Positions 9,827 to 46,700 of a stretch of DNA of 64,000 nt are shown here, piece after piece. Each line of letters opens with the position of its first letter. Position 1 is the stretch's first letter. The notes under the pieces are model-generated. The model had not been told where the DNA came from and made no database searches. It saw only the letters and a list, made by a program, of their open reading frames with translations. The translations under genes were made by a program, and so were the position numbers. Origin of the DNA: Raillietiella orientalis (lineage: Eukaryota); NCBI GenBank assembly GCA_036172245.1, contig JAYWIR010000018.1, forward strand, positions 248,001-312,000, given 5' to 3'.

Positions 9827-11934
9827 GAAAGGCGCGTTTGATGCCGGAAGCAAGCAGCGCACGCGCTGCTCACCAAGCGCCACGGGGCGGCCGACCACCC
9901 AAGCCCACTCAGTGCTTTCCGCAAAACACCACCACTCCTTGTATTCTCCTGGAGTTCTCCGCGCGCGCTCAAAGCGCACCACCGGCTGCGCCCCTCCCGG
10001 GCGGCACCGGTCAGTCGCCGCGCGGCGCACCTCAGCGACGCCCACTCCTCCATTTACTGCGGGCACGAACACACCAGATGTTTGTCTCCCTGCACGTCGT
10101 CGGCCCGTCCGACCGTCGGCCACACCTTGCTGCCGGGAACCACGAAGTCCTGGAATGCGCACGACAGCCTTCCGACGAGCGACCGCGCGAGCTCCTACCG
10201 CCGGGTACACGGCGCGGAGCCTGCTGTAAGGCCGGTCCCAGGCGTCCTGCAGCGCCGTGTGCTGGCAGTGCGGCGCCCTCTTCAGCGGGTTGTTGGCCGC
10301 GTCCATCCGTCCTTCCTCGATGGCGCGGATCTCCTCACGGATCGCTGCACACAGGCCGCAAGCTCAGACCGCCGCGCGCCGCGCCATACCCTACCGAGCA
10401 GCGCGTTGCAGAAGCGGTCGATCTCTTCCAGACTCTCCGATTCGGTGGGTTCCACCATCAGGGCGCCCACCGCCGGCCAAGACATCGTAGGGGAGTGGAA
10501 CCCTGGAGACAAGCACGGTGAACAGGTGTCCCCGCACCGCCCCAGCGTTGCAACAAAAAAACCCCTCCCTCCCCGGTCTCCTTCGCCTGTCGATGCGCGG
10601 GCCGACCTCGCAGCAACACCGCTGACTTTCTACTCCGCACCCACCCACCCCCATTCACTCTCTCTCTCCACGCCCCAGGAACCAGCATGCATGCACCCGT
10701 CCGGCACGCAGGTGAAGCAGCGAAACAACGGGAAAAAACGAAGGCAGGACGCAAGGAAGGAAGGAGTCGCCTCCGGTCGCTGACCTCGAAGCGGCAAGTG
10801 CCGAATCCCCTCGCACGACAGGGAAGGCGCCTCCGGGAAGACTCACCGACGCCTCTCATCCGTTCCCACCTCCGTCCTCCACGCCACAGTCGCTCCCCAC
10901 TACCGGATGCCGGGACATCCGGCCAGTTGCGCGCTCCCCACGCACTCTCCCTCGCGGAGAAGCCGGCGAACCCTCTGGATGCACTCCACACCCTCCTCCT
11001 CCTCTTGCGATCCTGCGCGCGCCCCTCTCCGCCAGCCAAACATCCCCTGAGCGCGTGGGCAGTGCGCGCACGCGCGAGGAGCACGCCGGACTTCCCAACA
11101 GAGTCCACGTGCTCAGAGTCGCCACCCAGGGCGCCAGGGGAGAGATCACGCGTCGGTCACTCCGCTCGCATGCAGTGCAAGTCACCGCAACCGTAACCGT
11201 GGTAACGAGCCCACCCGTTCCATCCCACGCTCCTCGTTCGGCGCGCACGCCCCCGCAGCCCGCTCGTGACACGCCTGCGACTGCCTTTTCGGTGACCCTA
11301 CGACCCCCCCCCCTTCCTTTCAGGTCCCGGTTGCCTCAGCCTGACGGTCTCCGGCCACGAAGAATAGCTCGACCCCTCCCCACCCCCCGAACCGAAAACC
11401 GAGGCGACACCGCACCAGGCACCCGCGGGAAGCCCGCGATGCAGCCCGAGCGCAGCGGCGGCGCCAACCGCGGGCAACCTACCGAAATCCTGAAGCCGTT
11501 TCGCAATGTCGATGGGTTCGATGCCGGCGCTTTTCCTGAACCGCTTGACGTCCATGACGAACTCGTGGCCCACGCGCCCGTTCCCGTCCATAAACAGCAT
11601 GTCGTAGGCCTCCTTCAGCCGCTGGCTCATGTAGTTGGCGTTGAGGATCGCCACCTGGCTGCTGCGCCTCAACCCGGAGGCTCCCATCAACTGCAAGCAA
11701 ACGACGCTCGCCGGATGGAACGCTAGTGCTGGCACCGCGCGCGCCTCCTTGCGGCCGCCCTCTGCCCGCCGATTTCCAGAAACTCTTGCTGCCCGCAGAG
11801 AATCCAACCTCCCGCACTCGGCCCTTCGTCTCTCCCTTCCCCTTCAGGCTCCGCTCGCGGGATCGCAAGAATCTTCCTGCATCCCGCGACCGTCTGCCCC
11901 CGTGCGTGCCGTCCAGGCGATGGGCTACTCCTCT
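9827..11934. repeat. Left arm of 2108-bp inverted repeat (contains GLDC exons 17-20 and proximal 3' UTR)
   Basis: Reverse complement of 44593-46700. ORF-track entries pair with a constant coordinate sum of 56527 (e.g. 11298..11807- / 44720..45229+; 9838..10521+ / 46006..46689-) and identical translations, so there are no indels and no visible substitutions. Confidence 0.97.
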
Positions 11935-44592: not shown

Positions 44593-46700
44593 AGAGGAGT
44601 AGCCCATCGCCTGGACGGCACGCACGGGGGCAGACGGTCGCGGGATGCAGGAAGATTCTTGCGATCCCGCGAGCGGAGCCTGAAGGGGAAGGGAGAGACG
44701 AAGGGCCGAGTGCGGGAGGTTGGATTCTCTGCGGGCAGCAAGAGTTTCTGGAAATCGGCGGGCAGAGGGCGGCCGCAAGGAGGCGCGCGCGGTGCCAGCA
44801 CTAGCGTTCCATCCGGCGAGCGTCGTTTGCTTGCAGTTGATGGGAGCCTCCGGGTTGAGGCGCAGCAGCCAGGTGGCGATCCTCAACGCCAACTACATGA
44901 GCCAGCGGCTGAAGGAGGCCTACGACATGCTGTTTATGGACGGGAACGGGCGCGTGGGCCACGAGTTCGTCATGGACGTCAAGCGGTTCAGGAAAAGCGC
45001 CGGCATCGAACCCATCGACATTGCGAAACGGCTTCAGGATTTCGGTAGGTTGCCCGCGGTTGGCGCCGCCGCTGCGCTCGGGCTGCATCGCGGGCTTCCC
45101 GCGGGTGCCTGGTGCGGTGTCGCCTCGGTTTTCGGTTCGGGGGGTGGGGAGGGGTCGAGCTATTCTTCGTGGCCGGAGACCGTCAGGCTGAGGCAACCGG
45201 GACCTGAAAGGAAGGGGGGGGGGTCGTAGGGTCACCGAAAAGGCAGTCGCAGGCGTGTCACGAGCGGGCTGCGGGGGCGTGCGCGCCGAACGAGGAGCGT
45301 GGGATGGAACGGGTGGGCTCGTTACCACGGTTACGGTTGCGGTGACTTGCACTGCATGCGAGCGGAGTGACCGACGCGTGATCTCTCCCCTGGCGCCCTG
45401 GGTGGCGACTCTGAGCACGTGGACTCTGTTGGGAAGTCCGGCGTGCTCCTCGCGCGTGCGCGCACTGCCCACGCGCTCAGGGGATGTTTGGCTGGCGGAG
45501 AGGGGCGCGCGCAGGATCGCAAGAGGAGGAGGAGGGTGTGGAGTGCATCCAGAGGGTTCGCCGGCTTCTCCGCGAGGGAGAGTGCGTGGGGAGCGCGCAA
45601 CTGGCCGGATGTCCCGGCATCCGGTAGTGGGGAGCGACTGTGGCGTGGAGGACGGAGGTGGGAACGGATGAGAGGCGTCGGTGAGTCTTCCCGGAGGCGC
45701 CTTCCCTGTCGTGCGAGGGGATTCGGCACTTGCCGCTTCGAGGTCAGCGACCGGAGGCGACTCCTTCCTTCCTTGCGTCCTGCCTTCGTTTTTTCCCGTT
45801 GTTTCGCTGCTTCACCTGCGTGCCGGACGGGTGCATGCATGCTGGTTCCTGGGGCGTGGAGAGAGAGAGTGAATGGGGGTGGGTGGGTGCGGAGTAGAAA
45901 GTCAGCGGTGTTGCTGCGAGGTCGGCCCGCGCATCGACAGGCGAAGGAGACCGGGGAGGGAGGGGTTTTTTTGTTGCAACGCTGGGGCGGTGCGGGGACA
46001 CCTGTTCACCGTGCTTGTCTCCAGGGTTCCACTCCCCTACGATGTCTTGGCCGGCGGTGGGCGCCCTGATGGTGGAACCCACCGAATCGGAGAGTCTGGA
46101 AGAGATCGACCGCTTCTGCAACGCGCTGCTCGGTAGGGTATGGCGCGGCGCGCGGCGGTCTGAGCTTGCGGCCTGTGTGCAGCGATCCGTGAGGAGATCC
46201 GCGCCATCGAGGAAGGACGGATGGACGCGGCCAACAACCCGCTGAAGAGGGCGCCGCACTGCCAGCACACGGCGCTGCAGGACGCCTGGGACCGGCCTTA
46301 CAGCAGGCTCCGCGCCGTGTACCCGGCGGTAGGAGCTCGCGCGGTCGCTCGTCGGAAGGCTGTCGTGCGCATTCCAGGACTTCGTGGTTCCCGGCAGCAA
46401 GGTGTGGCCGACGGTCGGACGGGCCGACGACGTGCAGGGAGACAAACATCTGGTGTGTTCGTGCCCGCAGTAAATGGAGGAGTGGGCGTCGCTGAGGTGC
46501 GCCGCGCGGCGACTGACCGGTGCCGCCCGGGAGGGGCGCAGCCGGTGGTGCGCTTTGAGCGCGCGCGGAGAACTCCAGGAGAATACAAGGAGTGGTGGTG
46601 TTTTGCGGAAAGCACTGAGTGGGCTTGGGTGGTCGGCCGCCCCGTGGCGCTTGGTGAGCAGCGCGTGCGCTGCTTGCTTCCGGCATCAAACGCGCCTTTC
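44593..46700. repeat. Right arm of 2108-bp inverted repeat
   Basis: Reverse complement of 9827-11934. Exact match starts at AGAGGAGTAGCCC (44593) and ends at CGCGCCTTTC (46700). Confidence 0.97.
44837..46473 (+). pseudogene. GLDC: Orphan, undamaged copy of GLDC exons 17-20 (no 5' exons upstream in this orientation)
   Basis: Exons 44837-45044, 46025-46132, 46183-46328 and 46378-46473 have intact splice sites, frame and stop ([20 protein letters not shown]...HLVCSCPQ*). Lacks the PLP-lysine exon. Confidence 0.9.

Follow-up and report, generated by a model that had tools for sequence, protein, structure and literature searches.

Structure and gene content of the GLDC locus

We analyzed a DNA stretch of 64,000 nt (referred to below as the window) from Raillietiella orientalis (contig JAYWIR010000018.1, positions 248,001 to 312,000 of the forward strand; assembly GCA_036172245.1), in which the 3' end of the gene encoding glycine dehydrogenase (decarboxylating; GLDC) occurs twice, in the form of two inverted arms bordering a single-copy spacer (Table 1). 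The gene content was determined by Pfam scans of stop-to-stop open reading frames (ORFs) and by tblastn with two GLDC proteins obtained in a homology search. The original prediction for this locus had proposed (i) 2108-bp reverse-complement arms, (ii) an enclosed block holding the 5' part of GLDC, Nup62, a TTLL gene and two GlcAT genes, and (iii) LSM12 and FBXL14 as the left and right flanking genes. The coordinates of the arms were reproduced exactly by base-by-base comparison, all of the enclosed genes were located between the arms by Pfam or tblastn, and both flanking genes were recovered, the former through its AD domain.

Table 1. Features of the GLDC locus (positions are counted from the first nucleotide of the window)
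Feature	Position	Strand	Remarks
Left arm, perfect core	9827-11934	-	joined to upstream GLDC exons; functional GLDC 3' end in the assembled orientation
Right arm, perfect core	44593-46700	+	orphan copy of the GLDC 3' end, introns kept
Single-copy spacer, potentially invertible	11947-44580		GLDC 5' part, Nup62-like, TTL-family and two GT43 genes
Outer decayed edge, left arm	9789-9826		compared with 46701-46738: 29/38 match, 8/9 mismatches are transitions, distal 13 nt identical
Outer decayed edge, right arm	46701-46738		partner of 9789-9826
Inner decayed edge, left arm	11935-11946		within GLDC intron; compared with 44581-44592: 9/12 match, 3/3 mismatches are transitions
Inner decayed edge, right arm	44581-44592		partner of 11935-11946
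GLDC, as assembled	10054-24458	-	5'-most matched exon 24458-24393; TAA stop 10056-10054
Arm exon a	11483-11690	-	LMGASGL...AKRLQDFG; AG acceptor, GT donor
Arm exon b	10393-10506	-	FHSPTMSW...DRFCNALL; AG acceptor, GT donor
Arm exon c	10199-10347	-	ends ...RLRAVYPA; AG acceptor, GT donor
Arm exon d, coding part	10054-10150	-	AG acceptor; ends ...VCSCPQ, then TAA
First canonical AATAAA after GLDC stop, assembled orientation	8719-8714	-	1334 nt past stop, outside arm
First canonical AATAAA after right-arm stop	47964-47969	+	1490 nt past stop, outside arm
Nup62-like nucleoporin	28832-30798	+	FG-rich ORF 28832-30238, Nsp1_C 30384-30798
TTL-family (tubulin-tyrosine-ligase, TTLL) catalytic exons	36518-37606	+	Pfam
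GT43 (GlcAT-type) glucuronyltransferase gene 1	39741-40576	-	Pfam
GT43 (GlcAT-type) glucuronyltransferase gene 2	42379-43469	-	Pfam; upstream region adjoins right arm
LSM12-type AD-domain exon	5827-5985	+	left neighbour, convergent with GLDC; Pfam
FBXL14-like single-exon ORF	61349-62716	+	right side, about 14.6 kb from arm; Pfam and protein search

The two arms were found to be exact reverse complements of each other over 2108 bp, with 0 mismatches. A repeat search of the window returned a single inverted pair, slightly longer than this perfect core (9789-11946 and 44581-46738; 2158 nt, 99% complementary, with 32634 nt between the copies), and no other direct or inverted repeat family of at least 100 nt. 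The window therefore contains inverted high-identity copies (2108 bp at 100%, or 2158 bp with the edges described below) around a single-copy segment of 32.6 kb, and the duplicated DNA, present at both ends of that segment, is non-repetitive genic sequence (copy number being judged within the window). As far as can be judged from the assembled sequence, the GLDC 3' end is a genuine DNA-level inverted segmental duplication of at least 2158 bp.

GLDC is composed of approximately 19-21 coding exons, as counted from the tblastn segments, and its best local protein matches are 68-75% identical over about one quarter of the query, a read-through intron included. Each arm comprises the final four coding exons of the gene with the stop codon, followed by 227 nt of the 3' untranslated region (UTR; 10053-9827 in the left arm), and the inner boundary of the repeat is placed within a 427-nt GLDC intron (12117-11691). 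The splice sites within the arm are all canonical (four AG acceptors and three GT donors), and the Pfam GcvP2_C domain is identical in both arms. The previously proposed arm content (the last four coding exons, the stop, about 230 nt of 3' UTR and an intronic boundary) was thus borne out by the splice-site check, with the exception of the exon numbers, 17-20, which are only approximate for a gene of about 19-21 exons. The possibility that the right arm is a retrocopy (processed pseudogene) of GLDC was also considered and rejected, since its internal introns, three in number, are all kept, as is a portion of a fourth; the retention of introns argues for a copy made at the DNA level.

Diverged edges of the inverted repeat

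Homology between the arms continues in register past the perfect core, for 38 nt outward and 12 nt inward. These diverged edges were overlooked in the original prediction, and it is they, and their contrast with the perfect core, that are new in the present analysis. In total, the edges contain 12 mismatches in 50 nt, 11 of which are transitions, compared with 0 in 2108 nt of the core (Fisher p = 6e-21). The 50 nt lying beyond the edges are random-like (11/50 and 14/50 positions matched, with transition to transversion counts of 12:27 and 14:22). The match of the outer edge (29/38) was reached by none of 200000 random 38-mer pairs drawn from the same GC-rich flanks, the maximum being 23, and that of the inner edge (9/12) by 145 of 200000 random 12-mer pairs. 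A blastn comparison of the 3-kb flanks (word size 7) yielded an in-register stretch of 31 nt with an E value of 1.5e-5, besides which neither this comparison nor a local alignment of 300 nt detected any longer diverged homology past the edges. The edge motif has no further copy in the window, and hence it is not a dispersed repeat.

The outer-edge mismatches are located 1, 2, 3, 6, 7, 11, 15, 19 and 25 nt from the core, and are therefore densest directly beside it. Within this region (9802-9826), a run of AAA faces GGG at 9824-9826, and the gradient toward the core is predicted by none of the models considered here.

The edges bear directly on the question of whether the duplication is real. 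It could be an assembly artefact, with one true GLDC 3' end, and with mis-assembly having produced either the second arm or one of the joins (44580/44581, 9788/9789); the perfect identity of the core is what false duplications show, together with sharp ends. We consider this highly unlikely. A false duplicate would not be expected to have homologous, transition-diverged edges in exact register; there is no ambiguous base (N) or gap in the 64-kb window, and the repeat is internal, with 9.8 kb of unique sequence on its left and 17.3 kb on its right. Moreover, reasoning from the sequence, the junction at 44580/44581, where the GT43-side spacer meets the right arm's inner end, could not result from a mixture of the two haplotypes of a simple inversion. 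The distinct homologous edges, set in unrelated flanks, argue that two separate copies of the GLDC 3' end exist in the genome.

Proposed homogenization and age of the arms

The difference between 0 mismatches in 2108 nt and 12 in 50 nt indicates that no single uniform mutation process has acted on the repeat since one duplication. Ongoing gene conversion between the arms appears to be the best explanation of the identical core, the alternative being that the copy arose very recently. According to the first of these explanations, intrachromosomal gene conversion would keep the 2108-bp core identical, and the extreme edges would diverge, being out of reach of conversion, which would stop where homology ends. 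The perfect core and decayed edges thus provide indirect support for exchange between the arms, which is a precondition of flipping. We therefore favour, as the somewhat probable reading of the locus, a conversion-homogenized inverted duplication of the GLDC 3' end that may act as a substrate for inversion by non-allelic homologous recombination.

For estimation of age, mutation rates of 1e-9 to 1e-8 per site per generation were assumed. Taken as a neutral clock, the edges, with a Jukes-Cantor distance of 0.29 (95% range 0.14-0.53), would place the duplication at about 1e7-1e8 generations ago, and under the conversion reading the core would have been homogenized within the last 7e4-7e5 generations, both figures holding for the assumed rates. 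The GC content of the non-coding parts of the arm (67.2% in introns and 68.3% in the UTR) is higher than that of the adjacent GLDC introns (59.9%) and of four 1-kb flanks (51.5-61.6%), and this excess lies in the direction that would be expected from GC-biased conversion.

The second explanation, a static and young breakpoint duplication, requires no exchange and no flipping. In this case, a staggered-break inversion or an inverted copy-paste event would have produced arms that are identical through youth only, and the orphan arm would be a decaying gene fragment. At the assumed rates of 1e-8 to 1e-9, the 0 differences in 2108 bp fit an age below roughly 1e5-7e5 generations, and the best protein matches of the window are from arthropods. 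A recent copy, however, should also match at the edges, yet these carry 12 point differences in 50 nt, 11 of them transitions. A junction-specific mutagenic process changing about 24% of positions over 38 nt would have to be invoked, an implausible intensity that, to our knowledge, is far above any known polymerase error rate. The architecture is the same as that of the breakpoint duplicates described in Drosophila, which are partial gene copies lying inverted at the ends of a segment, but the duplicates reported there average 88% identity and reach at most about 1.9 kb in D. yakuba (PMC1885836), whereas the repeat described here is 100% identical in its core and 2.16 kb long. On balance, a static duplication, the chief competing reading, seems possible but rather doubtful.

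The conversion-homogenized duplication, in turn, has to be weighed against four points that do not favour it: (i) the distal 13 nt of the outer edge are free of mismatches (p about 0.013), which is the reverse of simple outside-in erosion; (ii) the GC content climbs gradually toward the arms, with no step at the boundary, so that the GC excess may predate the duplication; (iii) some long-read assemblers give near-identical repeats one shared consensus, and the true identity of the arms may be slightly lower; and (iv) the 2.1-kb arms are shorter than those of the flip/flop cases compared below (4.2 kb in yeast and 8-140 kb in X palindromes).

Origin of the duplication

Irrespective of its later history, the repeat may be a staggered-break by-product of an earlier inversion of the same segment. 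Under this model, the ancestral order would be left flank, GT43 to GLDC, arm, right flank, and inversion of the block would have duplicated the GLDC end. Two weak hints are consistent with such an origin. The GLDC body and the right flank, which would be contiguous in the modelled ancestral order, both have long GC-rich shoulders, and the A/T allele lies on the two new junctions of the model at 9 of the 11 informative edge differences (p = 0.065).

Enclosed and neighbouring genes

Apart from the 5' part of GLDC, the spacer carries four genes. The FG-rich exon of the Nup62-like gene includes, at 29187-29309, a 27/54-nt tandem repeat of about 2-4 copies with 66-80% matches, built of 'GTPQQGT'-type units. 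The two GT43 genes form a tandem pair on the minus strand. They have diverged so far that the repeat search (100 nt or more) did not register them as a direct repeat, which points to an old tandem duplication.

The best protein match of the FBXL14-like ORF is about 60% identical, and the named top matches for the window are mostly from arthropods. Among the matches of the GLDC and FBXL14 protein searches there was no near relative for synteny analysis, and metagenome contigs gave 0 matches to an exact 34-mer from the arm centre or to a degenerate 16-codon pattern from arm exon a. On the far side of the right arm, the stretch from 46.7 to 56.2 kb yielded no Pfam families; its first 3 kb are GC-rich (53-60%) with a CpG observed/expected ratio near 0.9. 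Farther to the right, an open frame of 361 codons on the minus strand (58634-59716) encodes a low-complexity, I/T/A/L-rich sequence with no Pfam family and is probably non-coding, repeat-like DNA within a GC-rich stretch. On the left side, a long ORF at 7268-7879 likewise has no Pfam family, and its translation is low-complexity or non-coding in appearance.

The base composition of the window is mosaic. AT-rich regions (5501-6500, 38001-40500 and 52001-54000; 28-40% GC) have CpG observed/expected ratios of 0.0-0.4, and the GC-rich regions (9001-16000 and 43501-47000; 54-69% GC) have ratios of about 0.8-1.15. This CpG mosaic suggests that some gene bodies may be germline-methylated and the GLDC and arm regions not.

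Inverted repeats around a block of genes are also the general shape of two kinds of mobile or switching DNA, namely a site-specific recombinase switch (of the shufflon or Gin/Hin type) and a transposon, here of 36.9 kb, with long terminal inverted repeats. This resemblance is confined to the shape, since the arms consist of host exons and introns and not of element ends, and we regard either origin as extremely improbable. Recombinase, integrase and transposase families were absent from the Pfam matches of 416 ORF translations (7 scanned twice), a set that covered ORFs of all sizes except those below 95 aa in the 9.8-24.4, 36.9-46.7 and 56.2-64 kb regions. No target-site duplication was seen by eye at 9789/46738, where the flanks, CTTCCCCGA and GTTCCCTTT, do not form a direct repeat. 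Searches for RNA families (Rfam), tRNAs and tandem repeats revealed none relevant in or near the arms. A site-specific invertible element (shufflon, Gin/Hin/Cin) was rejected on the basis of arms formed by 2.1 kb of a host gene and of the lack of a recombinase family in these scans, and a transposon with terminal inverted repeats on the basis of GLDC termini, with no transposase domain and no target-site duplication found.

Predicted consequences of inversion

Arms that are able to pair and convert could also cross over, and a crossover between them would invert the 32.6-kb block of five genes. The inverted form would rebuild an intact GLDC, and the features to change would be its neighbours (the LSM12 side or the FBXL14 side) and the distal 3' UTR/poly(A) region. 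Since the repeat has its inner end within an intron, and since acceptor, exons and stop do not differ between the arms, the same GLDC protein is predicted for either orientation, in agreement with what had been proposed initially. The accompanying proposal, that only the distal 3' UTR/poly(A) region of GLDC would change, is likewise upheld by the position of the first AATAAA, which is found outside the arm on both sides. Inside the arm there is no AATAAA or ATTAAA, only an AATACA variant located 108 nt past the stop. The distal GLDC 3' UTR would thus differ between the two orientations, if those AATAAA signals are used. As to the initial suggestion of a recurrently inverting or polymorphic cassette, the repeat could just as well be what a single past inversion or duplication left behind.

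A stronger version of the same idea is that of an old, tolerated or favoured toggle, in which the five-gene block would flip recurrently in the population, perhaps somatically, exchanging the neighbours and the roughly 1.1-1.3 kb, unrelated between the two sides, that precede the first AATAAA, and in which the spare arm would be a conversion donor keeping the gene end free of errors. We judge this version to be unlikely. For inversion of the block in general, the Pfam scans of the window ORFs pointed neither to regulation nor to a dedicated recombinase.

If the block does flip, the locus would provide a compact animal case of an inversion polymorphism whose bounding repeats consist of an essential gene's end. 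GLDC would survive in either orientation while its 3' regulatory context changes, and heterozygotes would show suppressed recombination over a five-gene stretch. The combination of a perfect core and decayed edges bears on the question of whether breakpoint repeats are a cause or a consequence of inversions, as here a duplication that is probably a by-product may have turned into a recombination substrate. There are also practical implications: annotation will wrongly report the orphan arm as a second, truncated GLDC gene, and short reads cannot assign the orientation of the block at the GLDC locus.

Comparison with known inverted repeat systems

The arrangement of GLDC has a formal counterpart in the plastid inverted repeat, where ycf1 spans the boundary between the repeat and the single-copy region and both flip-flop isomers restore a full-length gene. 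In both systems the gene is divided between the repeat and the invertible segment, and the opposite boundary carries a truncated copy. The plastid system, in contrast, is organellar, with arms of about 25 kb and isomers that are equimolar in cells, whereas the DNA described here is of nuclear type and intron-bearing.

It is established that a crossover between inverted repeats inverts the intervening DNA (PMC8327919, PMC9731477). In Saccharomyces, a 24-kb region of chromosome XIV with 15 genes, bounded by 4.2-kb homogenized inverted repeats, is reported to toggle repeatedly (Salzberg et al., 2022; PMC9731477). The GLDC locus resembles this flip/flop region as described there, in that a nuclear multi-gene segment (here 32.6 kb and 5 genes) lies between inverted copies of host gene sequence, homogenized in yeast and putatively so here, and in that inversion would cost no gene. 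The two differ in that the yeast region is reported in both orientations in many strains and species and has whole-gene arms of 97.6% identity, whereas here the arms are 2.1 kb long, 100% identical and formed by the end of one gene with its body in the spacer, and one assembled orientation was read.

A second parallel is offered by primate X palindromes (e.g., P24, FLNA/EMD), for which conversion-maintained arm identity, intrachromatid recombination that inverts spacers, and mostly harmless and recurrent inversions have been described (PMC8327919, PMC3961182). According to these reports, about 50% of the spacers are inverted between species (PMC8327919), and 11 of 16 human repeat-mediated inversions are recurrent (PMC3961182). 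The GLDC locus shares with these palindromes the high arm-to-arm identity and the gene-bearing spacer; it differs from them in scale, with arms of 2.1 kb compared with 8-140 kb, and in that inversions of the palindromes were shown by population and cross-species data, while the present locus is represented by one assembly.

The third parallel concerns inversion breakpoints in Drosophila, at which inverted duplicates, mostly of partial genes, were reported and explained by staggered breaks, fill-in and end joining; 12 of the inversions have a duplication at a single breakpoint (Ranz et al., 2007; PMC1885836). The likeness lies in the ancestrally unique genic sequence, usually a partial gene, that flanks a segment as a pair of inverted copies; such a duplication may be limited to one breakpoint. 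In Drosophila, however, such by-products decay, as judged from their reported mean identity (88%; PMC1885836), whereas in the GLDC repeat a perfect core is accompanied by decayed edges.

A literature search on GLDC with inverted duplication and inversion returned no report of a palindrome formed by a GLDC end, its matches dealing with unrelated complex rearrangements in humans. By analogy, the locus is one that joins known kinds: it would work like the yeast chromosome XIV region and the primate X palindromes, and it looks like a Drosophila breakpoint duplication.

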